Source: Lingula anatina
Lineage: Eukaryota > Animalia > Brachiopoda
Assembly: GCA_051362555.1 (NCBI GenBank)
Contig: CM120647.1
Location: forward strand, 7,874,001-7,938,000
Reading direction: 5' to 3'
Length of the DNA: 64,000 bases
Numbering within the stretch: the first letter of the stretch is position 1; every line of letters starts with the position of its first letter. Positions 1-49,900 of the stretch are shown one piece after another. A model generated the notes under the pieces. The model ran no database searches and was not told where the DNA came from. It was given only the letters and a program-made list of their open reading frames with translations. The position numbers and the translations under genes were made by a program.

Positions 1-534
1 ACCCGTACGACGAATGTTTTCAGGGGGGGAATGGGAAAAGTATGCACAGACTCACAAACTCACACTGCACGAAAATCAAAACTAGTATCTAACAGTTATT
101 CCGTTTAAGTCTCGTTCTATAATAATAATAATAAGTTTATTGAGCACTGATTGATATGAATACATTTGCAGGATCACCAGACTACATTATTTTCAAAATA
201 TATAAGGATATACATTCATATATGTTTACAAATGTAGTATGCTAAATTACACTTGTTAATGCATGTTATGCTATAAAATTAATTAATTAATTAATTAATT
301 AATTAAGCTATTTACAGCACCATCAACAATTAGTGGCTGTGATGTACTAAATTGCAGGTGAACTATGAATTTTAACAGCAGTCTTTAAAAATTCTGCTAT
401 TACTTTGAGACTTTTTCACAGGATGGATTAAGGAAAATTGACAATACCTGATTTACGACTTTCTTCACGGTTGAGAGTTAAGATAATACACGTATAATTA
501 AAATTTATTCATTTGGTTTTATTTTTCAGAATAA
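1..534 (+). CDS. 3' end of a small secreted EGF-like cysteine-rich peptide gene (partial; paralogue of the gene at 2827-5222)
   Basis: Reads (D)PYDECFQGGNGK from base 3, with the same DPYDEC motif and near-identical DNA to 2840-2860 on the - strand. Likely donor at 40 (A|gtatgc) and acceptor at 529 (tttttcag|AATAAAAG) give ...GNGKK*. Exon 530-590 is homologous to 2524-2465 on the - strand. Confidence 0.6.
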
Positions 535-1515
535 AAGAAGGATGCGAAGCCGTTTAATGTGACACTGCCAAAACCACAAATACTATAACCTCACTGGGAC
601 AGACTGCAGATTACGAAAATATCGTGGTGCTCTGTTATTAGTATTAAGTTACTGAAAAATCACTAAAACCATTGTAATTTGCCAAATATTAATTCACATC
701 CTTTACAAACAATAATACATTTGTCAAATATGCGAATTTTGTCTTAAAGGGGAACTGCAAAGTATATAATAGGTAATAAATTGTGCAATGAAAACGGATA
801 TGGGTGTTTGCTTTATTTATTCTATTCAATATTATTCTACAAAAAGATTCTATTTTGTTGTTTATACGCTTATATCAAAAGAGATGTTACTGTAGCACAG
901 GCACTTTTGAAAATGAATGATTACATGAGAAAAAAGGTGAAAATGCATAAATGAATAGAAAATAAATGAAAGAAGAAATAAATAGATAAATAAATAAACA
1001 TAAACAAATAAATATGAGGTATAAAACTTGCTTTTTGAAACGGCTACTGCCACTTATGGAACTTCATGTTCATGTTCAGTTTTCATTTAAAGGATTGTTG
1101 GATAATATAGATACATGTACAACACATTTATGGACCAATCTTTAATAATAATTGTAATAATAATGATAATAATTATCATTTTTCAATAAAATATGTATGT
1201 ACTGCCTAATACTTTTAGTATTACTTAAAAGTAAGTTTATTTCTCAGAAATGATATAGGGGACGTTGAAATAATAATATCAATGATAATAATTTTATTGA
1301 TCACAAAATTTTTTATCATGAACACACTCTTACAAATTTTAAGAAATATAGGCAATGAGATATCTGCCACTAATTGATTTTCACTAGATAGTCATAGATG
1401 TGTCTCTGGCTTGTTTTGTACAATTTTCTCTACTGTGTCCAATTTGTTTGTATGGGGCCGATTTTATCAATCAGGCGGCATCTAGTTCCGATGCTGTAAA
1501 TGAATAATAATAGTA

Positions 1516-1548
<33 letters not shown>

Positions 1549-1585
1549 TATTCCTATATGACGTATAAATGTATATGTACACGCA

Positions 1586-2225
1586 CAGGATGTTCCATTA
1601 AAAACGACCTATTTGACTTTCCATCTCAATTTTGATATACATGCATTTTGATATTTCAAACTTTCTTTCACTAAATTGTTCCATAGAGTGGCCATTTTAT
1701 CCTTGTAAATTCTGCAGAAATTTGAAACCTTAAATGTAGTCAAATTTCAATGATTGATAATGTGCTCTATCCACGCTCCTTGCTGCTGAATAACGGGGCC
1801 ACACGAACATTAAAATCTTGCAATGATGTCAGTAGGACTGTTTAGTAGACTGTATTCCCACAGATTTAGATCGATCCATCTGGATCGACCTAACTCCCTG
1901 GGGGTTCAAGCTAAATTGCAGTCAGCCGAGGTTAATTACCCCCTTACAGCTTTTAGTAGGCGGGACAGACATTTCAGCCGGCTAAGCTGACAGTAATCTA
2001 GTGAAACTCCCCACAGGGGATAGATCGATCTTAAATCTGTGGGAATACAGTCTTACTTCTCATTGTATGTTGGTCTTTGGAAGTTTCTAGAATTTGTTGT
2101 TTGTTAGCGTAGATTCTTTTCTCAAGGGCCCCCATAGGAAAAAAACTGGGGGGATTGAGATCTGGCGAATAAGATGGCCAAGAAAAGTCCGTGCGGCGTG
2201 TGATGATGATGTTTGAAACCATTTT
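1586..2225 (-). mobile_element. Degenerate Tc1/mariner transposon remnant, interrupted by a MITE
   Basis: ORF 2031-2222 contains WPSYSPDLNP (Tc1/mariner SPDLNP catalytic motif). Beyond the MITE the - strand reads QQQGAWIEHIINH*, like a transposase C-terminus. TIR-like CAGGATGTTCC at 1586. Confidence 0.75.
1847..2053. mobile_element. MITE family A, copy 1 (~210 bp)
   Basis: ~30-bp TIRs AGACTGTATTCCCACAGATTTAGATCGATC ... GATCGATCTTAAATCTGTGGGAATACAGTCT; internal sequence shared with 14213-14430 and 32263-32480. Confidence 0.85.
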
Positions 2226-2826
2226 ATAAATAATACGACCTTAAATGTATAAAAACAAACACAAATATCCGTTTTCAGCGAATATTTTATTACTCATTAC
2301 ACATCTTTTAGTCCCCCGTAAAAACGAACGAATTATTATATAGGATGTGAAGTGATTTTTGGTACAACACAGTTTCTTAGTGGTTACTGCAGTGGGGTTT
2401 TACAGAAGTTTAATAGTAATAATAGATCACCATGTATATATTTTTATCGTCTGTCCCATTAAAGCTATAGTATTTGTGGTTTGGGCCGTGGCACATTAAA
2501 ACGACTTTTCGTCCTTCTTTTATTCTGAAATATAAAAAAAGGAAATAAATAAATTTTAATTATAATATTTCAACTGTGAAGAAAGTCATGGAATAATAAC
2601 TATTTTTGTCATAATGTGTGACATAATATGGGAAAAACGCCAATTTATATTTTAATATTTTAGATATTTTTGTGTATGTTTTTAGGAGAGAGAGGGGGGC
2701 GAGAGAGAGAGAGAGATAGCAATATGAGGATATTTCAGTTGTGCAGATTAAGGCAGGACGCGTGTCAGATACTAGTTTAGATTTTCATGCGGTGTGAGTT
2801 GACATTCTACATACACTGTACTTGTC

Positions 2827-5222
2827 TCACGGAGTCTCCGTATAACATTCGTCGTACGGGTCACCACTGTAGTCTGGCGGGCACATACATTGCCACTTTG
2901 GTGCTTTACAGGCGCCGTTGTATCGAACCTTGAAGTTCGGTTCAAACCTCACGCATACTGCGTTTTTGCCACAGAAAGGTGGTTTTGCGTTGCCTGCTGA
3001 AAATGAAAAAGACACACTGGTAAATATTCACTATATTATTTAAAAGACTACCTAGATGTAAATCTAAGACAGCATCCACAACCAGTTGATCCATGGACTA
3101 AATGATGCGTGGGTCAAATATCGCCCGATCCACTTGAAAGTGTGACGAAATTTAAGTGTTCTGCCCGTGCTGGGACACCGCGCGTTGGAGTCAGGAATCC
3201 ATTGTAAAGTGTGCCCCATTTTTGATCTGCTGCCTAGTAAGTCCGCACATCAACTAGTTCTGAATGCGCCCTATGCTTAATCATACTTATATACAGGACA
3301 TGTATCTGAATTGAAAACTAAATATAAAATATAGAAGGGTATACGACAAATCAGTGTGTGTGTATGTGTGTGTGTGTGTGTGTGTTTTTGCACGCACGTG
3401 TGTGTGCCTGTAAACAAATGTATTTATGATGTTTGGAAATAAATCAAGAATAGGTAGGGGAGACCGGGGCTAGTTGGACCCCGGGGTAAGTCGGCCCCCC
3501 TGTAAATTTATGAAAAAGTAACTACGAGGTAAAAAAATTGGCCACATACTCTTGTAAAGTGACCGTAGCCTACAATGCTAAGGCAGTGTCGGACGTTAAA
3601 AAGTTTTACTTAAGCGGTGAGTCGAAATAAACTTTTTTTGCACCTAAAAGTAGTTTTGTTTAAGAGATTTAAAAATCTATTTTCATATGCTTTTGATCGA
3701 ATATAAGATATGTATAGGGCATCAAACTGAAGCTCATTGTTTCAAGTTTCACGGAGATGTATCATCGTTGCTCATTCTAGCACCATAATTGGCTAACATC
3801 CTTTAAAATAAATAATGTGCACCCGGGGCTAGTTGGCCCCCATGACTCGGGGCAAGTTGGACCCTCACATTACCCACAATCCTTTGCGCGCAACGCTGTT
3901 TGAAATAAACAAGTTGGTGAAATTGACAAAGCTTGCCGGTGTTTACCGTCTGATTGATTTTATTTAATTTGCTCTCCGGTGCTTTTTTGAAAATTTATAT
4001 TAGAAATGTTCTGTTGATTGTATGTATTAAAAAGTAAATCCATTGGACTTTCCTTAGAAAAACATTTATTTTGCCTTAATTCATTGTAAGGGGATTCCCT
4101 TTGCATTTAAAGTGTTATATGTGGCCCCAAGGGGATTTTCCACCCCTCCCTAGAGAGAGACCATTGTTGAAACAAACTCAGTGGTTTAAAACTGAATTTG
4201 TTACTTTCTTTTAATACGAAATTTATTATTCGTTTTCAATTATTAAAAACCTGCAGCTTTATACCATTATTAATTTATTCTTAATTAAAACAAAACAAAT
4301 TTTATTGATAGATATTTTGGTTCTTGCAACACATACCCCCCCCCCCCCCCTACAACGTGACGTACGGAAACCTAAAAAAAATCTGCCTCATTTGAACTAT
4401 TTATTCATCAAAGACTCAAAAATCAATTTAATAAATTAAAAATGTATAAAAATGTATTTCAAGGCGTGTACATGGGATATATTCTTCATTTTCGTATAGG
4501 GGGGCCAACTTGCCCCCCTGACGTCAACTGCGTTTTTTGTCAAATCGTGAGCCATCTGGGATTATGTTTGAAAAATAATGGCGTTGCATACGTAGCTTAG
4601 TTCATTGGGCTTACTTTGAAACCAGTTTTGTTACTCTAACCCATTCCTAGTTGGCTCTACAAGGCCAAAAGTGTCTAACGGGGCCAACTAGCCCCGGTCT
4701 CCCCTAATCTCCTGGCACTGACAACACACTCTCTTGTCAGATATGGGATTTTCTAGGCTAAATGACTAAAAGATTCAACTTATAGTAAATTATAATGAAT
4801 AATGTATAATTCCGTCAGCTCTTCATTATGAACTTACACTTTTCCTAACAAATCTGAATTGCAAAAGCACGTGTTAGGGCACCAGAGATATAAATGCACA
4901 GTCTGGAATTTTTAGAGATTATTACAAAAACCAAAATTAAAAAACCTTGAATGTAGGAACGGATTAATTTTATTGGTAAGCATGGGAAAATCGTCGTTTA
5001 ACCTAGGCAGATCCGCTTTATGCCACGTTTCCTGACAAAATGAACAGTTGTTACGTGTATCCTTTTAATGTCAATGCCATACTGGTAACTGAAAGAAAAT
5101 CGGGTTTTAAAAAGCAAAATCAAAATTGTGATATCAAGCAATTTGTCGTTATACTTGCATATGTAAAACTTACCCACAAACAACAAGCTAAGACACAAGG
5201 CAACAATCAAAAACGTCTTCAT
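2827..5222 (-). CDS. Small secreted EGF-like cysteine-rich peptide precursor, 72 aa
   Basis: Exon 5222-5174 (MKTFLIVALCLSLLFV, signal peptide, G|gtaag) joins exon 2996-2827 (ttttcag|; AGNAKPPFCGKNAVCVRFEPNFKVRYNGACKAPKWQCMCPPDYSGDPYDECYTETP*); phases match. 6 Cys, with CGxNAxC and CxCPxxYxGDPYxxC EGF motifs. A further 3'UTR exon starts at 2524. Confidence 0.8.
3457..4704. mobile_element. Non-autonomous DNA transposon (~1.25 kb) with TA target-site duplication, in intron 1 of the peptide gene
   Basis: TA|GGGGAGACCGGGGCTAGTTGG ... CCAACTAGCCCCGGTCTCCCC|TA, perfect 21-bp TIR. Internal TIR-like subrepeats near 3483, 3824, 3849 and 4499. No ORF. Confidence 0.9.
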
Positions 5223-5957
5223 CTTTTTCCTGCAGTTTTTCGAACCGTTATTTCTTCCCCTGGCAGTGCAAACTTAAACCCGATTTGGCTTATTTGAGGA
5301 AACTTTAGAGGGAACTTGTATTTATACCAACAAATACGGTATAATTATGCAGGGGACAATGATATGAGCAAGGCGAAATGAAAGCTGATTGGACTAACTT
5401 CATGTCCATTATGAAGGTGAGCTAGCACACAGTTAAAAAGACATTAACCTATGGTGTTTTAAATTCAGTTTACTCTTTAAAGTTGTGTCAAGGTATAATG
5501 GCCAGTGGAAAAAGGACATTTGACTTTTTTGACGTCAATTCATGGCATTTATCTGGACAAATAATGATATAAACGCTGTCTGGTATTCAGATAAGGTCAA
5601 AAATCGTGTTAAAAATGCTGTTGTGTCTCATATAAAGTTCATGTTATCTTATTTTTTAATAAATATTATTAGGGGTGACTTTTCTGGCTTGCGATTCTTT
5701 TAAGGATTGACAGTTTAATAGCAAAGAAGTGAGATTTACAATTTAATATAAACAAAGGTAACTTTTATCTCTCGTAACTTTTGGGAGCTTTACAATTTGA
5801 CACCAAAAGAAGTGAGATTGACATTCTACCACAAAAAGAAGTATTTTATGTACTTAATGTGCTTTAAAATTACCTTGTCACTTAAAGTACATGTAATTTT
5901 AATACAAGTATTTTTTCACTAAATATCTCAATTTTTTATGCCATTTGGCATCAAAAG

Positions 5958-6009
<52 letters not shown>

Positions 6010-6299
6010 TAATGAATATTTGTGTTGGTTTCCAGTGCAACCCAGTCTGTCTTAAAGATTGTGGAAGTGGAATTTTACAGAAATGCTCATAGTACATGTA
6101 TATCAACGTGGTCTTTTTATCGTTCACAGTTTGTCCCAATAATGCCATTTGTGGTTTTGGTCTTGTCACAAAAAATGCGCTTTTCGCCCTATTATCATTT
6201 AATGAAAACTAATGAATATTTTAATGTTTCACCTTAGAAGATATTTCAGTTGTAAAGAAAGTACCCCAGTTGTGGAACAAATTCCCAGCAACCACAGAA

Positions 6300-7350
6300 A
6301 GTTTTGTAACAAAACCATAAAGCTATCTTAACGCTATTGGTTATATTAACCTTAGCCGGCCCGAAAACGCGGCACGCTTTCGTCAAACAGCCGTAGAAAG
6401 ATTTTGTATGGTTGCACGAATGGAAAATTAATCGCCACAGATTTGGGAACATCTTCGAATTGATGAGAATTAATAAATATATAAATCATAATTACTCTTA
6501 GTCAAAAAGGTTGTTTCACTCCAATGCCACGCTGATGCTAGTTGTGTGTGTGTAAATTTGGAGATTTTTTTTTTTTGACTTTATGGACATTATTAACCTG
6601 TGTGGAAATCAATGTGGAACATCAGATTTCAGAGATTTGAGGGGGTGCATGCTGTAAATTCGAATAAAAGGCATAAAAATTAAGGATATGTATATCTTTA
6701 AAAATGTTTATCTTCACGGTATTTTGCGTTTTCTGTACCATGTGTTATGTTAGCCATGGTATGTGGAATAAAAGCGCTGTTCAAATTTGCTAACAGATAC
6801 GAGATTATCGTTTGTGAAAAAAAAAATAAATAAATAAATGAATGAATAAATAAAAAACTTATACCTGTATCTAACCGTGTAACCTTGTTGTTTGACTGTC
6901 GATCCGTGTTCAACCGTTCTTTGGCCCAAAAACGCAACGCGTTTTCATCAAACAGGCATAGCAAGATACTGTATGGTTGGACGGATGGTATGTTTAATCG
7001 TCACAGATAACGAATTAATGCGAATTAATAAGTATGTACTCTTAGTCAAAAAGGTTGCCCCACCCAAATGCCTTGCTGATGCTAGTTGTGGTGTGTAGAT
7101 TTTTTTTTTCTTATGATGGACATTTCTAACTTTTGGGGAAAACACTGTGTAACATCAGATTTCAGAGATTTGAGGGGTTGCATGCTCAAATTCGAAAAAA
7201 AAATGGTAAAAAAAAATAAAGATATGTATATCTTCACCGGTATTTTGTGTTTTCTTTACCATGAGTCTATTAGACATGGTATCTGGAATAAAAGCGCTGC
7301 TCAAAATTGTTTGCAGATATGAGTTGATCGTTTGTAGGAAAAAAATATTT
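6300..7350. repeat. Diverged tandem duplication, ~550-bp period
   Basis: Blocks such as TACTCTTAGTCAAAAAGGTTG, GCTGATGCTAGTTGTG and AACATCAGATTTCAGAGATTTGAGGGG occur at both ~6492-6650 and ~7037-7180. Confidence 0.8.
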
Positions 7351-8377
7351 GCAGAATTCAAAGCATTTTAACTGCCAATATCCTAACAGCGTATAAAATG
7401 GCAGATACTACTTAACGACGCTCTCCCGGCGAGGTTTCTCTTAAATATTACTTCTTTGACCTAAATTACCATAAAGGTGTGGATTCCGTATCCAAATGAT
7501 TGTCTAATTAAATTTTGCTTAGATAACGAAATTTAACTTTCGTGAAAGTTTTTGGTAAACCGTTGACATATAACTGATTGTTATACATTATACTCAAATA
7601 TCTCCGACGGTTTTGTTATGATGCTCGAGTTCTTGGCAGTCATAGGGTATTTGGATACGGTGAAGACCAACCTTTACCTTGTTGACGAGCTCCGGTCTGT
7701 TGATAATGTAGCAATTAAAATCCAAACTGTTTCTTTATTTGTTGGTTAAACTTCTACTAACCACTTGGGCGGAATGTGCAGTCTATTTTACTGCACATTG
7801 ATTTGGCCTGTCATAATAAATTATCCTAAACTAGAGTTATATTGCAGTAATTAGATGAAGTCGGACCTGCCTAGCGACGTCATATTGTCCGCCTCACTGG
7901 ACGGGAATGGTGGTCCGCTAGGAACCGTAGTCCGTTCCCCGTCTCATATACAGCATGTAATCCCAATATTACGACTAATCCCAACCTGTCCTAATCATAT
8001 GGGAGCCCGGGCTTTCATTTCATTCCTTTCAACGTTTGAAAATGTCCCAAAATCATACCCTAAGTCTGTCTATCCTGCAAAGCTACTTCTCTTTCTAAAT
8101 TCAGTCCTTCAAATAAACAATTTGAGGTTGATATTTCCTTGTGAACTTTACCTTCATTTCTCTCTGTTAGGTTCTCCGTTTATCATACCATTATTTATTA
8201 TCCCCCTCCTCTCCCCCTCCCAAACACACACACGCACGCTCACTTTAGCTTAAAACTGTTTTTTTTTTTTTTTTAATAATATTAACTACCCAAAACCACA
8301 TGGGCTCTGCACAAGGTTTCTCCTCATCTACTCTTTCACAAAAAAAAAAAAATAATAATAATAATAATAAATAAATA

Positions 8378-8413
<36 letters not shown>

Positions 8414-9257
8414 AGTAAATAAATAAAAACTGCTCTTGGCAATCTGTCCGTACGCAAGAAATGGCACTCGAGATAAGCAGACCCCCGTTCAAATATTTAG
8501 TAACGTTTAATTTTTAATCTGCTCCCAATGTTACATGCATAATTTAACCAAATAATTTCTCGATGCCAACTGATTCTTTTTTCCGAAATCATAAACGCAA
8601 CTACACTAGTAAGTTAATGTACAAAGTATGTCATTGATGAGGTCTTCACAGTTTTTAATAGATTCTATAAAATAGAAAGGCCTTCTGGCGGGCAAGTTCA
8701 CAGTTTTGACTGTATCGGTGTTTCTTGGAACTTCATTTCATTATCTAGACGGTGATCGATGCTCTGAATGTGCTATCTTGGCATTTCCTTGTATTATTTT
8801 TCTTCGACCGCATTTATTTTGAATATATTCTAATTTAATCTAGTTTAAACTAAATGCTAAAATAATTTATTTCATATTCATGATAGTTGACCCGGTAAAA
8901 GATGCGAGATTCATACTTGTTATCAAACATTTTTTTCTGTAGGGTAAACTGCGGAGAAATATCCCTTAGTGAAATAAAACTCTGTGATCCCTGTAGAGGG
9001 TTGTCAAATACAGTAATTAAACTGTTGTATGCAGACTCTTTCCCCAACATGAAATATTACCACAGGTATTTTCTTTTTACCAGTTGCCCATTCCGTTACC
9101 TTTTCACATGGTGCCGTGGGGTTTTTAATGAAAAAAAAACAAGAAAACACAAGATATTACACAGTTCAATCTTTTATTACATCATGAACCAAATATGAAC
9201 AGAATTCTCAATTTGTGATGGTCGTCTGTGTATAAAGATGGCGCCACTAGTCTCGGT

Positions 9258-12343
<3,086 letters not shown>

Positions 12344-12493
12344 TTTCAGACTTTTATGGGACTAGTTTAATCTGAAATACAAAATAGGCGAGTTAAATAC
12401 TATGCATTCGTTTGTTATATCCAGTATGTTTTATTGTGAGCGATATATTTTCACAGAAATTTGCAATAAATTGGAGCTCTTTCCACTCCCTAC

Positions 12494-12658
12494 CTAGTGC
12501 CTTTGTCACGTGGTCAAGAAAGGCCGATTTCCCACAATTCACAGCAAAGCTCGCGAGACATTCCGAGATACGATGGCCGGCTTCGAAAAAAGTTGAGGCT
12601 GATTGATAGAAATTTGCTGTATTAAAATACTTATTCGTGCAATTTCCAGTCAACGAAG
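12494..12658. promoter_or_regulatory. Compact bidirectional promoter RPL30/WDR35 with TCT (5'TOP) initiator
   Basis: - strand CCTTTCTT (TCT motif, +1 about 12522) is followed by 5'UTR exon 1 and donor G|gtaggg at 12493. CTCGCGAGA at 12550-12558 is a near match to the TCTCGCGAGA motif. CACGTG at 12507-12512. CpG-rich. WDR35 ATG at 12659. Confidence 0.75.
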
Positions 12659-13265
12659 ATGTTTATTTACTTGAGCAAGAAGGTAAGGCTACTTTGCAAA
12701 AAGAAAGGGGGATTCTGATGCTGCTTTTTTGTAGAGATAATTGGTGAAGTTTGGTTGCCAATGAAGCTCTACAGTACTTATCTCAAGTAAAGCCTTACAG
12801 CCAGTAAGTTGGCAGTCAGATACACTCTGTAAATATCGACAGGATTAGGATCGTTTGCTTCACTTAACGGTTGAAGGTCCATTGTGCCAAAAGATTGGTT
12901 TACAAATGACAATATTTTTTTAAATTAAAATAAAGGAGAGAAATGTAGCGATTTGGGTGGTGCATTTGATGATTTGCTTAAAATTTTAACTGCAATACAA
13001 TGTTGACAAGTGTTTACACCAGTCATCACAGTACTAGTACTCCTTTTGAATATTACTGTCATTAGAGTTACACATGGTATCATAGAGTTTTATTTTACAG
13101 CAATTTTGCTATGTGACTTTCAGATTGCCATCCCAAACAACACCACTCTGAGGTGTGTAGCCTGGAACAGAGAGCAGGGGTACATAGCCTGTGGTGGGGA
13201 GAATGGACTGCTTAAAGTACTGAAACTTGAGACTGCCACAGGTAACAAACTATACATATCTTTAA

Positions 13266-13296
<31 letters not shown>

Positions 13297-16200
13297 ACAC
13301 ACACACGTACACACAACAGAAACATAATCTGTGGAGGAAAATGGACTACTTAAAGTACTAGAGCTTTAGACAGCCATGGGTAACAAACAATTCCTTCTTC
13401 TCTACCCCTCCACATTTTATGATCTGAATTGGGAAAAAAACGTTTAGACTAGGAAAATGACTTAAAAGTATATAATATTGATATGACTATTTAATTATCA
13501 ATTTTTTCAAGGTAAAGATGCCAAGGTAAAGGGTTTGGCTGCTCCCAGTAATCTCTCCATGAATCAATCACTGGAAGGGCACAGTGGTAAGGAAATTATA
13601 TGAAAATTATAAGAAAATAATTAGAAAATTATTGAAAATTGTTATTAGATATCTGTTTATCGGAAGAGTTTCATCCGCTGTGTTTTGCACCATGATAAGA
13701 TTAAAGCAGCAATAAGATAAGATCAATAACAACACAGTATATTACCATTAATGCTTATTATATGAGGCAATGCAATTACCATTTTAATGTTTTTATTTAT
13801 TACACTTACAACACTGTCACAAATAATTGTATTGGTGGTCTTTAGATTCAGTTTTTGTAAAAATCTATTTAGAATGATAAGTACATATAACATGAGTGAA
13901 TGCTGTGTTTAACTTTCTCTTTGTCAGCAGATTCATTTTTTAAATTCATGCTCTCACAAAGTTTTTGTTGTGTAATTTGTCATTGTTTTATTTAATAATT
14001 TAATTTGATTAAGATTATTTAGATATGTAAAAAAGAGAAAATTTATCCCAAGGTAATCCTTGTGTCATTTGTTTTAAACATGATATCCTTATTTGCAGTT
14101 CCAGGTTCCACAGAATGTAGTAAACTTTCAATTCTTTATGATCGATAAAATGAATAACTCTGGTACTTGAACTTACACTAAGCAACGGACCGACGCTGGG
14201 GCCTCAACCTATGACCCCATTCCCAGAGATTAGATAGATCTACTTTAGGTCGACCTAACTCCCTGGGGGTTCACGCTAAATAGCTGTCAGCCGAGCGGAC
14301 ATGAAAGTTAATTACCCCCTTACAGCTTGTAGTAGGCAGGACGGATATTTAAGCTGGATTATCTGACAGTAATCTAGTGAGACTCCCCGCGGGGATAGAT
14401 CGATCTAAAAGCTCTGGGAATACAGCCTAAGACCTTTCTTTGATACTCTGCAAACTGTTATCTTCCCCAGCTACAGTTAAAATATATTTAAAATGATATA
14501 CATGTACATATGACATTCATTTTGTTAGCAAAATTCATTTTCTTTTCAACTCATGCTCTCACAAAGTTTTTATTGCCTTATTTGCCACTGTTCTATTCAA
14601 TAACTTAATTAAGATTATTCAGATATATCTATGAGAGAGAAAATTTATCCCATACTGACCCCAGTGTCATTGAGATTTTTTTTTCAGTTCCAGGATTCAC
14701 GGAATGCAATAAATAAACATTCAATTCTTTATACAAATACTTTATGAACTATTATCTTCTCCAGCCGCTGTCCAGGTGATCACGTGGAATGAGCACTACC
14801 AGAAACTGACCAGTAGTGACCAGTTTGGCCTCATCATTGTCTGGATGCTTTACAAGGGTAAACAGCCTAGATAGACCCCTAACATCAAAACAGTCTTCTC
14901 TCTGATAGTTCTCATAGCTGTTGAATGCCTGTGTTTGTCTTTATCTTCTGTTTAGATAGCCAATGTATTGTAGATGCTCTACTAGGGAAAGCAGCATTAA
15001 CTACTCATAATACTAAATTATTATAAAGATACAATGGCAGATCCAGATTTCCTTACCCCCCCCCCCCCCCCCCAAAAAAAAAAAAAAAAATCTATTTATG
15101 CACTTCACATATTATAAATTAAGGTAAAATTGCCCTCTCCCACTATTGCATATTTTTTGCTTTGTTTGTAAAAATAAATTATTCTTTGTACCCTTATCTT
15201 CCTCCTCTCCCTCCTTTATCAAAATCCTGGATCTGCCAGTGTAGGAAGTTTGCTCTAACACTGTCATTCCCTCCTGTATAGATATACCCAATGTCCAGGA
15301 ATGCCTCAGTTGCAGTGGCTCTGCTTTTTTTCTTACATCTCTGAGCTTCAGACTGATGCTTGATCCAGCCTCTTCAATTTAAAACCTGTGTGTGTCTTTA
15401 AAGTACTGTGACATTCAGCATCAAGTTTGATTGAAATTGACTATGCTTTATTATAAACCTTGAACTAGTGTTGCTTTGTTGACCTTATATCTGCTTGTAG
15501 ATGCATTGCAGTGGCTAGCTGGGGATTTTCTAATTATAATTCTTTATTTTATGCAGGTAAACTAGAGAGTGAAGTATAATTTTTTTTCCTTGCCATCCCC
15601 TCATTATACTGACTAAAACCTACGTTTCAGAGTGGATGCTGGACAGTTTCTTTGTTTTGAAAGAAACCGTGCATGTCTCCTTGTTGTGAACTTAATGGAC
15701 TAAATGCCTCAAAATAATCCTGTAATTGTGTTCCTTTTTCTATTCCCTACCCTTTTCTTATTTTTGTAACTTTTTTAACCTGACATGGCAGAGGAGACTG
15801 TCAATACTGTGGTGTGGAATCCATCCTCACTGCGTTTTTGCTCTGTGGACGATGCCAACCTCATAATCGTATGGGTTGAGGAGGAGACAGGTGCATGGTG
15901 TGAAATATTTTTCATGCACTTCACACATGAGAGGATCACCGTATAGCTTTTGGCATATTTACAATTTATTTTATTTCCATTTTTTGTGCTTTGGTCTTAG
16001 TTATCATACAATTTATTTTTGTCATTTTTTTGCTAATTTATTTTATGATTTTTTTTAATATTTATTGATTTTTTTTTTTTTTTGGGGGGGGGGGGGGGGG
16101 TATTAGAGGGGATTGCCAAAGAAAGCTTCACCTTAGTGATCTTCCTTTTGTGCAGTAATTTATTTCGTTTCATTTTATTTATTTTTTTCTTTTAAAAAAT

Positions 16201-19151
16201 ATTTTTCTTAATCATGCATGCATGCATTGAGTGGACTGATGTTTCCTATTGGTTCTCTGCTTTCATCAGCCAGGTCCCCCGTGTATCTGGTATTGTGGCA
16301 CCCCAAGCGGACACGTCTCACCTCCGTTGATTATTCCTCTCTCATCATAGTGTGGCGCAAGCACCAAGGTTGCTCTTCTTCTCACACAGGAAATCTTCCT
16401 TTTTGTCACTAAAAGACTAAATCCTCAGTTTTAATTTTTTATAAGCTTAGAACCTGTTCCTTTTTGTTACGTGTTTTTTTTTTCTTTTCTGTTGATTTTA
16501 TTTTTCGGTAATATTTGTTTTCATTCACTTTCAGCAGATACATTCTAAGGAGGCCTTGCTAAAAAAAACTTTCATTTTTTTTTAAATTATACTAGGACAC
16601 ATATGCCTTTAGACTTATTTTTTGACCTACTTTCCTTGACCTAATTTTTTTAACCTACTTTTTTCCAACTAAATTGCCCAGCACCCTGTGATATTCACAG
16701 CAATAATTTTATTTTCATTTCCTATTTGTTGAGTTGAATGCCATTCAGACTGGTTGTTTTATGAGACTGACCAGTCAAAATGACTACGTAGTAGACGAAA
16801 AGATTTACAGCACAGATCCTTGTGTTGCTTCACTTCTGCTATCATCTCTTTCACCTCAGCACAGTACCCTGTGATCTGCTTATGCTGGCACCCTGTCCCA
16901 CAGAGGGCGCCACAAGCCATTCTCGTGTCCGCTGGCGCCAACAACGCCATCCAGGCATGGGCGAGGTTGGATCGCAAGGTGGCGAACCGGCGCCTGATGG
17001 CAGAACAGGAGAGATTGATTCTTGAACAACCAAATTGTGCAGATGTTTATAAAGTTTTGACGAGTAAACTACATACTTCTGATTGGGTTTCTGAAAGTGA
17101 GCAGCCTCAGTTTTTAAAAAAAGTTCTCTTTTGTATTAATTTTGAAGAACTGTATAGCCTCTGGGTAGAACTAAAACTAGAAAAAAGATATTTAAATCCA
17201 GAAAATATTCAGAAGAAAAATATTCAGCTGCTATTGCTTGTTTGTTTCAAAAATTTGTACAGCCTAAATTATAGATAACAAAAATATACTTTAAGATGCT
17301 GTCACATGATGGTCATGTGATAGTCATGTGACTGTGCCATCATCACAGGGTGCTATGCAGTTTTTCCCACTAACTCTAATTTTCAGTCTCTGTATTTTAA
17401 ACTCTTTCCTAACTTTTCTTATTTGTTACTTCTTTTTATGCCTTTTAAACACAGGCTGATAAATTCCTTTTAATGTTCATGGCCACCGCATGTCTATTTT
17501 CTTACTTTCTGAGCCTTTGCTAGCCATTTTGCATTGTACACACAACCAATTCAAAGATGAAACATTCTGAACATTTAATGTCAGTTACCTTAAAGAGTAA
17601 CAGGTTTCTTTTTTCTGTTATTTAATTGAACAAGTGTTTCATGAAATCAAATAATCTTTACTGTTTCATTGTAAACCTATTGTAATTTAAGGGTCAATCA
17701 ATAATATTTCCTTCTCCCCTTTTTCATCTGTTTTTATCCTTCTCGTAATGAGAAAAAAGTATAATCATTTGGATCCTGCCTCCACTCTCTCAAAATGTAT
17801 TTTAGGAATAAATATAGTAAGGCGTTTTATTGAAGGAAATGATGCAGAGGGGAAAATACTGTTGATTGGTCCATTATTTAATATTAAATAATTTTTAAGC
17901 CCATACTGTAAAATCTACTTTAGTCATCAGAAATGTTTGTCTTGATACATATTTCAAAATGTGTACAATTGAAAAGTGCAGTTCTTCACTGAACTATTCA
18001 AAGTAATAAAAAAATGTTTACAATTTATTTTTTGAGTAAATAATGTGGTAATAGTTCCCTTTAATAACAGTTTGCTATAAAATAATAAAAATAACTTGTT
18101 GATAGAATATTGTCCTGTAAATGGCAGTTTTAACCAAGACAGGGTGGTATTTCAGGTTTGTGGTATGAGGAGATGATCAACAACAGAAACAAGTCTGTGG
18201 TGAGGTGTATGAAGTGGAATGCTGATGGACAGAAGATTTGTATTGTGTATGAAGATGGTAAGTCTGCCACACCTAACACAATATCTGCCACACCTTAAAA
18301 ATATCTGTCACATCTAACACAATGTTTGTCACATCTGACACAATGTTTGGCACACCCAACACAATGTCTGTTACACCTAATTAAATGTCTGCTGCACCTA
18401 ACGCAATGTTTGTTGCACCCATCACAATATTTGGAACACCCAATGCAATGTCAGTCAAACCTAACACACTATCTGGCACACCAAACACAATGTATATCAC
18501 AAACAGCAAAATCTTCACCACGCCTGACATTTTGCCATATTGTCATATTTGATTGTATGTTTTTTCTTGTGTAAAGTATGTTTGAATCACACCTCTTTGT
18601 TTTCATTTTAATCAGAACTGTGTACTTTTTTACTATTTATAATCGAATAGTTCTTAATAGCTGGTGCTACACAAACTCTTAATTATTTTGAAAATGTTTT
18701 ACTTATTTATGTATATTCCTGAAAATTTAACATACTTTGTTTGCAATAGATGTATTTAACAATTTATAAATTCTTATTCCCCCAGGAGCTGTTATAGTGG
18801 GCTCTGTTGATGGTAACAGAATTTGGGGCAAGGAGCTGAAATTACAGCTGGCTTATGTTGAGGTAAGAGATGTTCTTTACTATTCTTCTTCTTATTATTA
18901 TTTTTATTTATAATTGATTTATTTATATTTTTTGACACAGGCTACTGCAGATGTGGTTGCTAAACAAGGGGTTATCATTGTTAAAGTGCTAGGGTTTTAT
19001 TATTTTGCTTTTGTTTTTGAAAACAATGCACATGCCATTTTACTTTTCATTGAGTTTTGCTCAAGTTATATGAGTCACATTACAGTTAGTAGTCTCAAAA
19101 TGTAGAGATAAATGCTCTGTTTGTAGTGGTCATTTTGCAGCTTGAATGAGA

Positions 19152-19481: not shown

Positions 19482-19541
<60 letters not shown>

Positions 19542-19584
19542 CTTCCCACCAGTCCAAACCTAATTATTACAGTTTATTGAATTG

Positions 19585-22600: not shown

Positions 22601-25600
22601 TTAGTTATATATATTTTTTGCATATTTTTAAAATTCTTGTTGATTGCATTTTTACAGCTTGTCAAGCACAAGACTGGTTGCTGTGTCCCTTATTTTGTGT
22701 ATGTGGGGGTCTATACGAATGCGCTTGCTCCAGCTGGTGGTACAATATTTGGAGGCGGTATCGCCTCTCTGATCCTCTAGTTTTTCTTTGATCTCGTCTT
22801 TTTCTCTCTCCTAGCACCTGCGGACATTGAAGGTTCCAGGAAAACAGATGTTTTCGTGTTCGTGGGAGGGAGGAAGTCTGAGGATTGCCCTGGCCATTGA
22901 CTCTTTTATTTACTTCGCCAATATTAGACCGGATTACAAGGTAGGCATTGGTTTTAGAACAGTTGCATGTACACAGTCTCAGGATCCACTGCCTTAGGAG
23001 AGAAATGTTGCCCAGTAACTGAACAAATTTGCAAAATTTAACTGGACCAGTTTCAAATTTATCAATAATTGATGTAAGCTTATTATATTATAATCCATAT
23101 GTTATATATTCCAGTGGGGTTACTGCTCTAACACAGTAGTGTATACTTTCACTAAGCCAGAGAGGGCAGAGCACTGTGTTATCTTCTGGGACACAAAAAA
23201 TAATGAAGTAAGTCAGATTTTATAGTTTTCATTATTTTAAAAGATAATTGTTGTCAGTTGTCTGGCCATAATGTCTTTATCAAATACACTCTAAGATTTA
23301 AATGTGTAATTATTTGTGAATGGTTCACATTTTGCTCCACTTTCTGTTGCTGGGATGTGTGAAGTGAATGATTCACATTTTGTTCTACTTTTTGTTGACA
23401 GGGATATGTGAAGTGGATGCTTCACATTTTTCTCTACTTCTTGTCTTAGCCTAAGGATACGTAAAGTGAATGAACCACATTTTGCTCTACTTTCTCCTTC
23501 CAGAGATATGTGAAATATGTGAAGAATCTCTTGTCGATCTCTGCTTGTGGTGACTACTGTTGCCTGGCAACAAGGGCGGATGATGTCAGTGGTCAGGTTA
23601 GTGGAAAAATAATCACATACTCACATATATTTAGATAAATTATGCAACAGTTTTAAGAATGAGGAGCAATTTCTTTACCTTTTGGAACATTCAAGCTATA
23701 AATATGGGTTTTAACATTTCTGAGTTCGGAATTGTGAAAAGCAACATAATTTTGTCCCTGGCTATGCGTTATATAATGTGAAATTATCATAAGTTACGAT
23801 CTAAAAAAAATTAACGCCTGTTGAGGAATTCTAACCAAAGAAAAAACATCATTGTGGCTCAGTTCCAGAAATATGTATGAAAATCAAAATCCTTTCATAT
23901 TTTATTTCAGTATGTCCTCGTACTGTGCAACTCCATTGGCACGCCCCTGGACTCCAAGTACATAGAACTAGAGCCTGGCTACGTGACCATGACCAAGACC
24001 CACATCGTGGCGGCGTCCAAGGAGGCGTTTTACACCTGGCAGTACAAGACCACCCAGAAACTGACCACCATGGACCTGTCTGGGAAAAGACGGGGAGGAA
24101 CTGAGAAGTAAGGAAATTTTTGTTTTGTATCTAAGATGTAATCTGTGTCAAAAAATATAGTGAAAAACTGACCTGTCTGGGAAGAGACGGGGTGGCACTG
24201 AGAAGTGAGAAAATGTTTCATTTGTATCAGCTAATTAATTCACATTAGAAATTTGATGCAACATACTTCAGTCCTGTTTACTAAATGTTTTTTTTTTTTT
24301 TTTTAGCTTAAAAAAAAATACCAATAAATCCAGAAAAACCATGCCCATTAATATACCCAGCAATTTTGTCTGGCCTTATTGTATTTTTATTTCCAAGTTA
24401 TACCATTTGGATGACATAATTATACTATGATGTTCAGGTTATACCACATATTGTACCTATAATTGTTATATTATTCCAGGCTATATCATGTGGATGATGT
24501 ACCTTCAGGAGCAGGAGGTGATAACATTGACTTCAGCAAAGCTTTCCAGGTAAGCAAAAGCATCTAATGGCAGGATTTTATTATGTTATTTTATCTTAAA
24601 TTTAAGTCAGAGTTATGATATACTACCAAGGAAATTCCGCATGAGAAGAGCAAATAAAATAGTGAATAAATAGGGTACTAGATGAATAAAATAAATAAAT
24701 AAATAATAAATAAGATTATTAATTTTGATTGGAAGGGGAGTAATTAATATTTTATAATATCCCATTCCAGCCCACACAAGACCCCATCTGCTGCATCAGT
24801 GCCTCGGACAAAATGCTGGTCATTGTAAGTAGATATTGTCCTGTTGTTGTTATTACACTCAGTAGTGACAAGTAAATTGAGGAAGGTCAAATAACTTTAT
24901 TTTTTATGGTGCAGTCATTGTTAAAATATCTTTAGCTAAGAGACACATATTGCAAGTCACCTTTGTGTATTCAGCTATCTAATTTTTGACAGTCTTAGAT
25001 TAGCCCAGGAAATTGCCAATGGCAATTTTTGGGAAGTAGGACCCAGTGGTATGTAGTGTTTGGTATTTACAGATATTTATATCCTCTTCCTAGGGTCGCG
25101 AGTCTGGTACTTTGAACAGGTACACAATGCCACTGGTGGCGCTGTCAAACAAACATGTCCTAAACTGTCGTCCTCACCAGATGGCGCTGAACTGCAACTC
25201 TACGTAAGTAGACAATGGGACAAGGTGTCTCAGACTAAAAAGAAAAGAAAAAAAGCTTTGTTAAACATTGGTCTTAATTAGAGGGTTAAAAAGATGATTT
25301 ACTTTGGGATAGAAGAAGCGATCCATTTGAATTAATACTCTTCCCCCCTCCAGTTGCAGAAACATTTTTATACTTGTGTTATATTTTCTCTCAAAAATAC
25401 ATCTGTCAATTTGCTTACTGATTTTAAATGAAACTAAAGAAAGAATTACCATTTTTCAAGACAATTTTGATAATTTCAGTCTTCGTAACTTTGCTTGTCA
25501 GTATTTGCAACTGAGCACAGATACTATATTTGTGATGAAAATGTGTATTCAATAGTTTAAGTTGCTCACATAAGAATTTCTTGTTTTCCGTCCAGTCGCC

Positions 25601-28600: not shown

Positions 28601-31600
28601 ATAAAAACACCTGTATAAAAATAGTAATATCAATTATGATAATATTATAATATGAATATGGTGATCACTTCCCAGGCAGCAGGCGGTGACCTACTACGTC
28701 CAGGGCAGGAACCAGGAGCGTCTGGCAGAGTGTTACTATATGCTGGAAGACTACCAGGGTCTGGAGAAGATGGTACAGTTCTTACCTGAGAACCATAAAC
28801 TACTGCCTGTAAGTAGACATTAATGTTTATATAATATTATTGATAACTAGAAAAAGATATAGTGGTAAAATTAATAATTATATTGGTAGGGAGGAAGATA
28901 CATATGATAGTGATCATTGTTAAAGTAATAAGAATTAATAAAATTATATGCAGTTATAAAAGTTATGACACGTCATTGAATCAGAACTTAAAAACTTGGA
29001 AGTGATTACCTTGTTAAGTGATTTACTGAAACATTTTGCAGCAAACTTGGGTTTGGTTCTTGCAGGGGTGATAAACATCCTTGAGAATTTACTTTTGAAT
29101 CAGTATGATTATTATTTTTGTATATGTATATTTGTATATGTATATTGTCTATTTTTGTATATATTATATATGATTATAGCTGCATATTTTGTCCACAAAA
29201 AGTCCCACACTTCAAAACATACAATTATTATTATTATTATTATTATTATTCCTGTGTTTTAGGAGATAGCAGGCATGTTTGTCACAGTGGGGATGTGTGA
29301 ACAGGGAGTGGAGGCATATATAAAGGTAAGAATACTGATCATTGGTTTTAATAGCATCTGTACTTATAATACTACTATTAATAATAATATTAATAATAAT
29401 AATATCATTATTATGATTAGAGTATCTGTGAAAATGATATATTAATAATGGTAAAAATCATGTTTGCCTCTGGAGTGGCAGTTTTTTGGTTGGCTCCTGG
29501 GTCAAACGAGGCCTTCAGAGATAATAATGATACTTTTTTAATGATATTGCTGAAATGATAATAATTATTATTGTTAAGAAATTACATTGATAATGGTATT
29601 ACATGATAACAATAAATTGGTATTGATAAAATGGATAACAATAATGTTAATAATAATCATTAGTAAGTACATGTAGTATTGACATCCATGCATAGTGCAA
29701 CTTTACAGCTTATAAGACATGTATATATATAATTTAAATTATTTCATCCTCTTAACTTCATTTATTCACAGTGTAACCGTGTAAAGCAGGCCATAGACGC
29801 CTGTGTCCACCTCAACCAGTGGAATCAAGCCATTGACCTGGCCAAACAGCACAACATCAAAGAGATCGACTCTCTGCTGGCAAAGTATGCCCAGCACCTG
29901 CTGGAGAAGAAGAAGGAACTGAGTGCCATTGAGCTGTACAGAAAGGCCAGCCATTACCTAGAGGGCGCCAAGTTGTTGTTTAAGGTAAGCTGGGGTTGTG
30001 CCATTAAAATTTAAATTAAAATGAACAAATTATTTAATCAATTAACAAATTAATTTATAACAAATTAATCAGTTAAAATGAGAATTGAAGTTTCTTGGCA
30101 GAGGTCAGCACTCTCTGATTGCTTGATTTATATCTGCTGAAATTAACTTCGGTTTTCTTTTTTCTTTTCTTTTTTTTTATTTATGCCACACTTTGTTCTT
30201 ATTCATGAAACATTGATATATTACACACAGCACTTGTACAGCATGTACAACAGACATGTAAAGCACACTATCTTTAAAAAAGCTCTTCATAGTTGTAATT
30301 ATAAAGAATAATTTTCATTACTGAATTTTATTTCTGTCATTACCCAGGTTGCAGATGAAGAAGCTCAGAAAGGCAGCAAACCACTGCGGATCAAGAAGCT
30401 GTATGTCCTGGCCGCTCTTCTTATCGAGCAGTACCACGAACACGTGAAGTCCACCTCTAAGTCCAAGGCTAAAGGAAAGTCCAGAGAGGTATGAGACACT
30501 GAAAACAATTTGGGATATTGGTGAAATAAGTTTTTCTGTGTCTCTTGTGTAAGGATGGTAAAAAGTCCACTGTTTTGAAAGAGACTTAATGTATTATCCC
30601 ATTATTCTGAGTGTTTCTACCCTTCATTGAAATGCCATGACTCATAGGCAGATGTTTAATTTTCATATGTACTAATTATTTAGCACATATTAAGCTTTGG
30701 CCATCTTGGCTGCAGGCTTTCTTAAGACTGATCTGAGGAGACATTAAAATTATATTAGGATCGTATGTGTGATTTCTCTAGAAATGACGTTACATGTCTA
30801 AACCACTATTACAGAACTCTGACAGTGACTGTTATTTGAACTATTTCAGGCAACCTCAGCCCTAGCAGGACTTCTTGAGGAAGACTCAGCCTCTATATCA
30901 GACACAAAGCTTATAGACAATGCATGGAGGGGGGCAGAGGCATACCACTTCTATCTCCTGGCACAGAGACAGCTCTATGAAGGTAGGGAACCTTGCTCTG
31001 GAGGCCCTTTGGGGTTATTTTATTTATTTATTTTTTTATTTCAACTTTTTTATTGAACTATTTTATTGAATTAAATTTATACAATTATTTTAAATTACTT
31101 TTAATTTTTGACTAATAGCTGGAAATTTGATAATCAAAATTTTGAACCAAAATATTGTTTTTTATTTAATCTAAATATATTTCAATTAAAATAATAATTT
31201 TGACAATGTCACATTTTCATAAGCCAGCAAAAGTGAGGTATTTTCTGAAGTTAAAGAATTTACACGTTTTACTATAACTATTTTAACTTTATATTTTAGG
31301 TTATGTGGACGCTGCCATGAACACAGCTCTGCAGCTCAGAGACTATGAGGACATCATCGACCCCATCAAAGCTTACTCACTGATAGGTACTGTTCATTAT
31401 TTTATAATTGGAAAAAGTAAATCAGTTTTTACTCGAAACATTTTAGCTTGCTGGTCCTTTGAGTCACCAGGGCCTTGGATTCTGAAAGCCTACTGGTGCA
31501 GAACAGAAACTGTCACAGTGGCTATTAACAGAAAAAAAATCACTTTTAACAATTATAATGGCATTATCCAGTGCAGCAAACAGTATTTGATGCATGTTCC

Positions 31601-31918
31601 AAAGCATTTATTATGCTTATGAAAGGTACATCTTTAATTTTAATCCAGACAAAAAAAAAAAAAAAACAGTTACTAACAGTTTTTACTCATTTCATGTAAT
31701 ATAATATAAATTCTTTTCAATCTCACCTTAGCTTTGTCAAGTGCAGCAAACAGAGCGTTTGGTACATGTTCCAAGGCCTTCATTAAACTGGAGTCTATAG
31801 AAAGTGCCAGTCCTGAGGGGAAATCACAGTATGAACAGCTGGCTCTGGATATCTTTACCAAGTAAGAATCTTGTCAGTATTTTATCAGTACATGTAGCAA
31901 AGTATTTGAGTCATTAAT

Positions 31919-46987: not shown

Positions 46988-49900
46988 TATACTAGTATTA
47001 TTCATTCTTGTTTTTAACCAGTTGCTTTGAGGCATATAGCCATCATGAAAGAAAAATGTGTTTACTTGGGTGCAACACATGGTGCATTAGATAAATTGCC
47101 ATCAACTTGCTCATTTCATTTCCAAGGACCAGTCTTCAGAGAATCTCTCTTCATAATCACTTGTAATGAGTTTATGAATTAGGAACAGGTGTTCTGTCAT
47201 TTGTCAACTGATCCTTAACTGTGTTCATCCGTGATGATCGAGTACTTGGAATTGTTGATTCCTGTTGTTTCAGATTATGAGCTAGGCACAGGTATTTGTC
47301 AACTGATCCTTAACTGTTTCATCTGAGAAAACTGAGTACCTGGAAAATGCTGATTCCTATTGTTTCAGATTATGACTTAGGCACAGATGTTTGGTACAAT
47401 TGGTATTTGTCAACCGAACCTTAACAAGGTGCTTCCGAGGAAACCAAGTACCTGGAATTGTTGATACATGCACCTGTTGTTTAAGCTTATGAACTATGAG
47501 CAGATGTTTGTTCATTTGTTTACTGATCCTTAAAGGTGTTCATCTGAGGAAACAGAGTACCTGGAACTGTTGATGCTTACCTGTTGTTTCTTGGAATTGT
47601 TTCTTGGAAATTGTTTCGTGGAACCATTTGGCTGGCAGTCATGTCATTTTGTCATGGAACACTGCAATGTGAAGTCAACAAGTGCTCATTAAAATTGCTC
47701 TCTGTTTCAGAGTATTCCTGTATTCAGAAACACTTTTCATCAGCCTGCATTTCTGACTGCAGCAGCGATCCTTTACCCAATTTGCTGGCCATCACCCTTA
47801 GTTTCACAGCACTGACAGTGCCTCTCCTCTGTCATCCTGAGTGTGAGAGTACTATCAAAAACTTTCCTCTACTGTACTTGCTCACTGTCAGCCTGAATTT
47901 CAGAGCCTTCACAGCCTTCCTCTTCCCCCCCCCCAAAAAAAAAACTAAATTAAACAAATAATTAGGAAAATAGTTGCATGTTAATTAAGACAAATTTAAC
48001 TTACAAGCAATCATCTTATTTTTAGAAATCTCCAAGATGACCTGGATAGTTATCAAAAATCGGTCGTCAAACTTAACGAGGAGCTAAGCAAGCAGCCAGC
48101 AAATAACAGCGGAGGCGGAGGGAACCAGGGTGCTGTCTGCCAGATCTGCCACAAGACCAAATTCGCTGATGGCCTGGGACACCGGTGCAACTACTGCAAT
48201 CTTCGCTCGTGTGCTCGCTGCGGTGGTAAACTGCAGCTTAAACAGAACAAGGCAAGAAGTCCTGTGGTAATGTATATTGGTGGCTTTCTACCTGCTTTTT
48301 ATGTGTAATAGACAGTTCCGATAAATAAAATGGGTGAGAATATACTGCACTTGATCTTCTCCTTAAGAAGGTAGGAAATGCCTGCCACAAGTATCGATCC
48401 AGGCAAATAATACATGGGTGAGAAACTGTTGCTTTAAGACTCTAGCCATGATTTAAGAATCCTTCTGAAGTAAAAAGTTTGAAATGACTTTCCAATTAAA
48501 CGTAAAAATGGCTTACTCCCTGCTTTTTCTGTGTGCTATTCTAATGAAAAAAATGATGTGGTTTTGGGGTGAAAATTTGTTGCTGTATGATTTTGCCTAT
48601 TTGCCTAAAACTAAAAAAAATCAGTATTGTTAATGCATGCCATACCTGTCAGGTAGCAGTTTTAGTAAGAGTCGCAAATAAACTGGAGTTGGTACATGTA
48701 GATTTCATCCCTTTTCACATCTTGTAGTACCCTTTTTATGTACAGACACAGATGTGTCTGTACATATAGCCATCATCTGCGTCTGTCGTCGCCGTCGCCG
48801 TCGCCGTCGTCGCCGTCGCCGTGCACTTTTACCGATAACACGATAAGTGGAAAACTGTTTTTTCTTTTGGCTTGAAACTTACAAAACTGATGAATATTCA
48901 TAATAAGCAGGTCAAGTTCGAAAATCAGCATGATCGGGTCACTTATAGGGAATTTATGCTGTTTTTTCACTTTTTTCAGCATATATGCAGCACCGATAAC
49001 ACGATAAGTGGAAAACCATTTTACCTTTTGGCTTGAAACTTACAGAACTGATGAATATTCATAATACGCAGGTCAAGTTCGAAAATCAGCATGATCGGGT
49101 CACTTATAGGGAATTTATGCTTTATTTCACTTTTTTCAGCATGTATGCAGCACCGATAACACGATAAATGGAAAACCATTTTACCTTTTGGCTTGAAACT
49201 TACAGAACTGATGAATATTCATAATACGCAGGTCAAGTTTGAAAATCAGCATGATCGGGTCACTTATAGGGAATTTATGCTGTTTTTTCACTTTTTTCAG
49301 CATATATACAGCACCGATAACACGATAAGTGGAAAACCATTTTACTTTTTGGCTTGAAACTTACAGATCTGATGAATATTTATAATACGCAGGTCAAGTT
49401 CGAAAATCAGCGTGATTGGGTCATTTTTAGGGAAGTTAGGCTATTTTTTCTCTTTTTTCAGCATATATGCAGCACCGATAACACCATAAATGGAAAACCA
49501 TTTTACCTTTTGGCTTGAAACTTACAGAACTGATGAATATTCATAATACGCAGGTAAAGTTCGAAAATCAGCATGATCGGGCCATTTTTAGGGAAGTTAT
49601 GCTGTTTTTTCACTTCTTTCAACATATATGCAATGCTAATAACACAATATAAGAAAAACAGATAGGCCAATTGTCATTATACTCACAGGAGTAGTCAAAC
49701 TAACTAAAACGCAGGTTGAGTTCCAAAATAAGCATAATCGGGCCATTCTTACAGAAGTTATGCTGTTTTTTCTTATTTCCTCAGATTCAATTGTTAGGCA
49801 TGTTAACAGTCTCATTTTTGAACTAATAAGATACGTAAAAGTGTTTGTTTGACATTTCCTGCATCTTGATACTATTGTTAGTTGATTATGTAAAAATGAT

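Follow-up and report, generated by a model that had tools for sequence, protein, structure and literature searches.

A tandem array of exon 4 copies in WDR35/IFT121 of Lingula anatina, a candidate mutually exclusive splicing cassette

Clusters of tandemly duplicated, mutually exclusive exons, as described in passages of PMC4691838 for insects (Dscam1; exon 4 of serpent) and of PMC8373072 and PMC9741552 for humans, consist of homologous exons that lie side by side between two constitutive exons, agree in phase and are similar in length. Passages of PMC9741552 state that substitutions of tandem-duplicated exons in humans are mostly tissue-specific, and that ion channels and nerve/muscle genes are over-represented in the human and fly sets. 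The stretch analysed here (the window) comprises 64,000 nt of the brachiopod Lingula anatina (GenBank GCA_051362555.1, contig CM120647.1, positions 7,874,001–7,938,000 of the forward strand; coordinates below are window positions), in which the gene for WDR35/IFT121, a core scaffold subunit of intraflagellar transport complex A (IFT-A) rather than a channel, nerve or muscle protein, carries three additional copies of exon 4 (4b, 4c, 4d) behind the canonical one (4a). The array has the layout of the known clusters and shares with them a retained structural core, a changed surface, old divergence and saturated silent sites. It differs in that inclusion of the variants is predicted from sequence and in that 4d is irregular in length; because inclusion is unproven, the array is a candidate member of this known kind of splicing. 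IFT-A subunits are highly conserved and present in single copy, and it is an open question how cilia of different kinds are all served by one intraflagellar transport (IFT) machine.

The tandem array in WDR35 intron 4, with three copies beyond 4a, is confirmed as real. Constitutive exon 3 (13512–13586; + strand, as for all array features), covered by RNA reads, encodes the strand preceding the GH of the WD repeat and ends in phase 1. It is followed by 4a (14765–14857; 93 nt), the default exon encoding three strands of blade 2 (Pfam E 2.4e-12), 4b (15792–15890; 99 nt) and 4c (16270–16368; 99 nt), both intact diverged paralogues, 4d (16860–17096, 3′ end uncertain), and constitutive exon 5 (18156–18257), which opens with the fourth strand of blade 2. 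Exons 4a, 4b and 4c have AG..GT borders, are phase 1-1 and contain no stops, and 4b, 4c and 4d are all stop-free, opened by AG and entered in phase 1; common entry and exit phase, similar length and an open frame thus hold for 4a–4c, and for 4d only as a 204- or 237-nt exon. Coordinates given for the exon 3 end, 4a–4c and the exon 5 start in the original prediction, made from the sequence before this analysis, proved correct, as did its spacers of 934, 379 and 491 nt and its description of 4b as acidic and 4c as basic (net charge −5 and +5). Its reading of the exon 3 end as EGHS-G needs correction, the ‘G’ being one nucleotide and the join to 4a reading EGHS-A-AVQ.

The WDR35/IFT121 gene (12659–32910, + strand), complete in the window, was annotated as 30 exons, which joined give 1100 stop-free codons; the last exons were placed by tblastn and open reading frame (ORF) only, making the 3′ end approximate. 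Residues 8–1180 of abalone (Haliotis) WDR35 are matched in the window by tblastn, and tblastn, tree and PF24797 identify an orthologue that has a TPR region in addition to two propellers. With 4a, the product is thus an ordinary WDR35, with 80% identity to Haliotis over 1100 aa and about 73% to vertebrates, sister to 13 gastropod and bivalve-type sequences (support 98) in a quick tree of 25 proteins.

No similarity of 4b–4d to 4a was found by blastn. In Pfam, 4b (E 6.5e-4) and 4c (E 2.1e-4) both match best to PF24797 (WDR35/TULP4 N-term), in a common register (profile positions 73–100 for 4b, 73–101 for 4c and 73–102 for 4a). A hidden Markov model (HMM) built from 48 orthologous exon 4 peptides scores 4c at 19.7 and 4b at 17.9 bits, with the next match in the window at 7.5. 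An HMM of 400 generic WD40 repeats, scored on the end of exon 3 joined to each AG-opened phase-1 stretch of the gene (285 in all), places 4c (28.2 bits), 4b (27.4), 4d (23.2) and 4a (21.5) first to fourth, the next stretch reaching 16.1, and all four start exactly at the proposed acceptors; this test is partly circular, as its repeats came from proteins found with the 4b/4c/4d profile. The copies are therefore homologous and tandem between the same constitutive exons, clearly so for 4b and 4c and by the generic WD40 HMM for 4d, whose first match in the Atlas is also of WD40 type (0.94, low recognition; a lead only). The Pfam register, the orthologue HMM and the WD40 HMM ranks agree on the paralogy originally proposed, and it is on these grounds that the array is judged to be more than chance.

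That the copies are old, selected exons was also part of the original prediction, and is upheld most clearly by the comparison of 4b with 4c. Codon position 2 is identical at 22/27 sites and position 3 at 10/27 (Fisher p 0.002), the proportions of synonymous and non-synonymous differences are 0.83 (pS) and 0.33 (pN), and nine of the 11 degenerate residues common to both are encoded by different codons. GC content at third codon positions (GC3) is coding-like at 0.56 in 4b (18/32), 0.69 in 4c (22/32) and 0.74 in 4d (28/38) vs an intron GC of 0.32, and a GC of 0.49 is attained by just 1.5% of the 1255 intronic windows of 96 nt. In-frame codon scores are 0.52 (4b), 0.16 (4c) and 0.58 (4d), real exon stretches scoring 0.35–0.69. 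In a neutral-decay simulation with assumed indel rates, 4b and 4c both remain intact with p 0.05–0.10 at 0.1 substitutions/site and 0.003–0.011 at 0.2. Comparison between paralogues thus suggests purifying selection on 4b and 4c, and the array carries what appear to be marks of long selection; if dead, the copies died recently. Six other duplicated exon ends in WDR35, all partial and 78–100% alike as DNA, show the mutational source and have the appearance of recent dead copies, while 4b–4d are full length. Short local duplications of exon ends or intron DNA are frequent in this gene (78–100% identity, several with a duplicated splice site), lying at 13322–13391, 19513–19557, 23316–23412 (two copies), 24170–24228 and 31561–31613, with a further one at 13920–14139 vs 14521–14732.

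We read 4b–4d, with a probability of roughly 0.6, as a cassette of mutually exclusive alternatives to a default 4a, seldom used and probably confined to certain tissues. The copies would have arisen by the local tandem duplication common in WDR35 and would be activated in a particular cell type or stage, one variant per mRNA, each one predicted to take the place of three blade 2 strands in the N-terminal propeller of IFT121. In an AlphaFold2 model of a WDR35 orthologue (mean predicted local distance difference test score 77.9, about 90 over residues 71–100), exon 4 corresponds to strands 74–80, 85–90 and 95–101, exon 3 supplying the strand of blade 2 before these and exon 5 the one after, matching the three strands of the second blade named in the original prediction. 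Stacked copies would lack the fourth strand, so the model would favour use of one variant at a time.

Among 28 WDR35 proteins, 12 columns of exon 4 are invariant. Both 4b and 4c retain V74, W79, D90 and L94–W98 and replace K85 by R, S89 by V and G93 by N or S; N80 becomes H in 4c and 4d, and 4d retains V74, W79, I95 and W98, its columns 94–98 being fixed by the filter applied. The variants carry one or two extra residues ahead of the first strand. They would therefore keep the fold core and lose the WDR35-invariant K85, S89 and G93, plus N80 in 4c and 4d, and may change or abolish a conserved contact made by the membrane-facing propeller instead of tuning it finely. Different cargo surfaces or use in different cilia types, as put forward in the original prediction, would be a speculative consequence. 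Passages of bioRxiv 10.1101/2022.08.09.503213 put the N-terminal propeller of IFT121 alongside the ciliary membrane and in contact with the propeller of IFT140 in the neighbouring complex, and passages of PMC10023715 report binding of the IFT43 N-terminus to the same propeller. IFT-A structures containing WDR35/IFT121, found by searching with the orthologue, are PDB 8FGW, 8BBE, 8BDA, 8HMC and 8F5O.

Results that weaken the observation or weigh against the cassette reading are set out in this and the next three paragraphs. BLOSUM similarity to 4a is borderline, at 56 and 53 vs 50 for a chance antisense match (4351 candidates), and 4d has no Pfam WD match and is also missed by the orthologous exon 4 HMM. 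These points would suit chance look-alikes in intron DNA, which would have to share Pfam register, intron, strand and phase, take the top ranks in two HMM scans and form GC-rich islands with high GC3; we consider this highly improbable for the array, and for 4b and 4c it is largely refuted. The codon-position test is not significant for 4a–4b (p 0.41) or 4a–4c (p 0.056), and the selection signal is weak for pairs involving 4d. The 4b acceptor (1.3 bits, weakest of the four) and the 4b and 4c donors (3.3 and 2.8 bits) are weak, although the used 4a donor scores only 1.1 bits; the 4c acceptor reaches 5.7 bits and that of 4d 8.6, the strongest of the three copies and equalled by 1.7% of 693 intronic AGs. 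All variant sites are AG/GT and fall inside the range of the gene's 29–30 real sites, mostly at its low end. An in-frame ATG-GCA-GAG at 15785, just 5′ of 4b, together with the poor acceptor, could indicate that 4b begins a separate transcript from an intronic promoter, encoding an N-terminally shortened WDR35. In the four shallow RNA runs no reads lie on or upstream of 4b, and the good acceptors of 4c and 4d share the phase of 4a, as expected for entry from exon 3; we regard such a start as very unlikely.

The end of 4d is the most irregular part of the array, with no in-frame GT at the homologous donor position. A WD40-like core (16860 to about 16975) is followed by an extension that is coding-like to about 17062 and intron-like past it, in a frame that stays open until a stop at 17276–17278. 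Three in-frame donors are available, at 17036 (−1.4 bits), 17063 (1.3 bits) and 17096 (7.6 bits). The donor originally proposed, 17063, is weak (20% of 716 intronic GTs score equally well) and gives way to 17096, the best, which yields a 79-codon exon. As a fourth variant 4d has its WD40 HMM rank in its favour and is less regular than first implied. A Pfam PSRP-3 match in its tail (E 0.016) was taken as chance. Frame-shifting donors at 16965 (6.7 bits) and 16978 (5.5 bits) lie near the homologous position, and would fit a cassette making non-standard products, with 4d as poison or terminal exon, or 4c and 4d stacked, so that WDR35 is down-regulated or a short protein made. The 138-codon open frame of 4d (its last 60–71 codons open by chance with p about 0.004–0.01), an AATAAA at 17807 and the lengths of 4a–4c, multiples of 3 that permit stacking in frame, point the same way. 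A poison role would not, however, keep WD40 residues in 4b, 4c and 4d; the far end of 4d resembles intron (GC 0.29, codon score −0.35), stacked copies would each be missing the last strand of a blade, and 4a–4b stacking is absent from the reads of the four runs. On balance non-standard products seem improbable.

RNA evidence comes from four of nine runs matched by species label, none of them listed as long reads, mapped to 13472–16051 at a 90% threshold using about 6–26% of each run; the runs are shallow and their tissues unknown. Joints of exon 3 to 4a are present in 4/4 runs (18 reads; 3, 4, 2 and 9 per run), the beginning of 4a carrying a variant base in seven of the 18, and 4a has a read depth of 3.5–8.1 per run. 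On the opposing side, all 18 exon 3 joints among those listed go to 4a (7 more joints and 322 loose ends fall outside the list), and 4b has zero depth in 4/4 runs, giving a 95% upper bound of about 15% for 4b (0/18), with the proviso that the reads are from divergent individuals and a more divergent 4b could miss the threshold. Of 23 reads over 13579, near the exon 3 end, 18 are 4a joints and ~4 are expected to end too near the junction to be counted (an estimate); the five leftover reads are compatible both with use of 4c or 4d and with none. Joints of 4a to 4b were not seen in the four runs over the mapped interval. The junction check suggested earlier thus shows use of 4a, finds no 4a–4b stacking and provides nothing for 4b, and the 18/18 joints and zero depth rule out an equal one-of-four choice in these four samples. 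Between reads of the same species label and the window, 11/11 listed differences in exons 3 and 4a (about 55 codons) are synonymous, reflecting either very high polymorphism or a cryptic sister lineage.

Searches of proteins and other genomes likewise give no counterpart of the copies. A 4b–4d-like segment is absent from 136 WDR35 proteins having the exon 5 anchor, made up of the best 120 of 777 matches and 16 of 18 further cluster members with that anchor (from isoform lists of 10 clusters, 28 members), and this is what sets the gene apart from WDR35/IFT121 of IFT-A elsewhere. In a set of 5.8 billion proteins, 0/4 candidates for 4c in longer proteins and 0/25 for the 4d ORF were positive, as were 0/596 metagenome contig stretches for 4c. 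The 4b/4c/4d profile has 383 matches at E<=0.001 among 1.84 billion proteins; the best 150, all with two or more matched stretches, include no near copy, and 6/6 checked are WD40 proteins. Over 288 proteins the best local scores of 4b, 4c and 4d are 74, 75 and 65 vs self scores of 170, 173 and 215. Thirty-five metagenome WDR35 loci are also without a 4b–4d-like segment, and no full second exon 4 copy is present in the seven that clearly span the post-exon-4 intron (L004, L006, L008, L011, L021, L031, L032); these loci are weak evidence, none being shown to be a close relative. In the post-exon-4 intron of one, another animal's WDR35 (L031, ~420–480), a partial exon 4-like stretch (12.7 bits) is not kept in the near-identical locus L008 and is put down either to chance or to decay of a dead copy. 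In three fish gene models of WDR35 (P0018, P0058, P0060) exon 4 is missing and exon 3 runs straight into exon 5, which may reflect annotation artefacts or skipping. From these comparisons, with no close relative among the sequences available, the cassette looks lineage-restricted. In line with the earlier statement that no such cluster was known in WDR35, no report of one was found in the full-text literature, judged by titles and with subscription papers thinly covered, and WDR35 does not appear in the main text of the two human catalogues (PMC8373072, PMC9741552), whose gene lists sit in supplements.

The lack of 4b reads, the weak 4b and 4c splice sites, the irregular 4d end and the lack of a homologue anywhere searched would all be expected if the copies were vestigial, that is, once-selected alternative exons recently switched off and no longer spliced, and pN below pS between paralogues speaks for past selection rather than present use. 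Loss would have to be recent, since all three copies remain intact with p < 0.01 at 0.1 substitutions/site (assuming the chosen 4d donor), while neutral change is plentiful in this lineage, as the synonymous differences in exons 3 and 4a show; GC3 and CpGs are kept, and the RNA test is shallow (18 joints, tissues unknown). We consider vestigial copies unlikely, though less so than non-standard products, and retain the rarely used cassette as the preferred reading.

If 4b–4d are alternatives to 4a, a means of enforcing the choice would be needed. Steric exclusion by a distant branch point was rejected, as AG-free zones span 36–126 nt vs spacers of 379–934 nt; the long spacers and short zones make it unlikely, as the original prediction had argued from the spacers, and frame-based decay is unable to filter exons of 3n length. 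In the Dscam exon 4 and 9 clusters and in serpent, a downstream docking element is complementary to several competing selector sites (passages of PMC4691838). An unbiased scan found nine stems outside low complexity, three of them sharing one arm at 17342–17368, a candidate downstream docking site (+ strand). Its predicted partners are a candidate selector after 4c (16671–16692, −31.8 kcal/mol), which has a 10-nt core in common with the 4d start, a candidate selector after 4d (17141–17165, −31.3 kcal/mol) and a site over the 4d acceptor (16859–16875, −27.5 kcal/mol), the best three among 1705 + strand windows. The core common to two of these sites fits duplication of a stem arm, and a duplication model for docking sites and selectors is presented in PMC6071210. 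The pairing with 16671–16692 encloses 4d in a stem present in the minimum-energy as well as the centroid fold (z −3.35 against 20 shuffles, for a region picked after the fact).

Two results tell against such a mechanism, and so against the cassette. Three stems on one arm also occur in 13/231 shuffles and 7/26 real control stretches, making the pairing not significant against either null, and no comparable selector follows 4a (best −21.9 kcal/mol) or 4b (best −15.6 kcal/mol) in scans that covered all but part of one spacer intron. No single docking site with a matching selector next to each variant was therefore found; unlike the described systems, partners lie around 4c and 4d only, and the pattern does not beat the nulls. 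The arrangement is a lead, and the site a candidate that may choose between 4c and 4d. Directly 5′ of it, at 17300–17333, three CACATG/CATGTG motifs, which we take to be E-box-like, lie in a small hairpin. A more far-reaching form of the cassette reading, in which one-of-four splicing of blade 2 steered by the docking site yields up to four IFT-A versions for cell-type-specific IFT trains, e.g. for sperm flagella, motile bands and sensory cilia, is a tentative and rather doubtful proposal; acidic 4b, basic 4c and loop-extended 4d blades would then replace a surface unchanged from algae to humans.

Other features of the locus lie outside the array. In WDR35 intron 3, a ~215-nt repeat (14214–14428) with a strong internal hairpin (14244–14290 with 14363–14409, −50.5 kcal/mol) is covered in each of the four RNA runs by divergent reads numbering in the hundreds to thousands, and similar pieces occur at about 1814–1990 and 32458; it is presumably a high-copy miniature inverted-repeat transposable element. 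A degenerate ~21-nt minisatellite (18262–18500) starts directly after the exon 5 donor. Head to head with WDR35 lie exons of a gene from the ribosomal protein L7Ae/L30e family (~9550–11310, − strand; Pfam E 5e-12), probably RPL30, and a RIM-like gene lies 3′ of it (~36380–61800, + strand; RIM2a zinc finger at 48000–48305, E 8.9e-21). An Rfam scan of window positions 1–16100 gave no match.

Were the copies dead, the array would still be a clear record of a once-selected exon cluster, of modest interest. Such a set of up to four IFT-A versions, if it exists, would amount to a Dscam-style cassette in a core IFT subunit. If the rarely used cassette is real, a spliced swap of the membrane-facing IFT121 blade would provide natural variants for testing what this surface binds, and specialisation of cilia types would be encoded in the core machinery itself.

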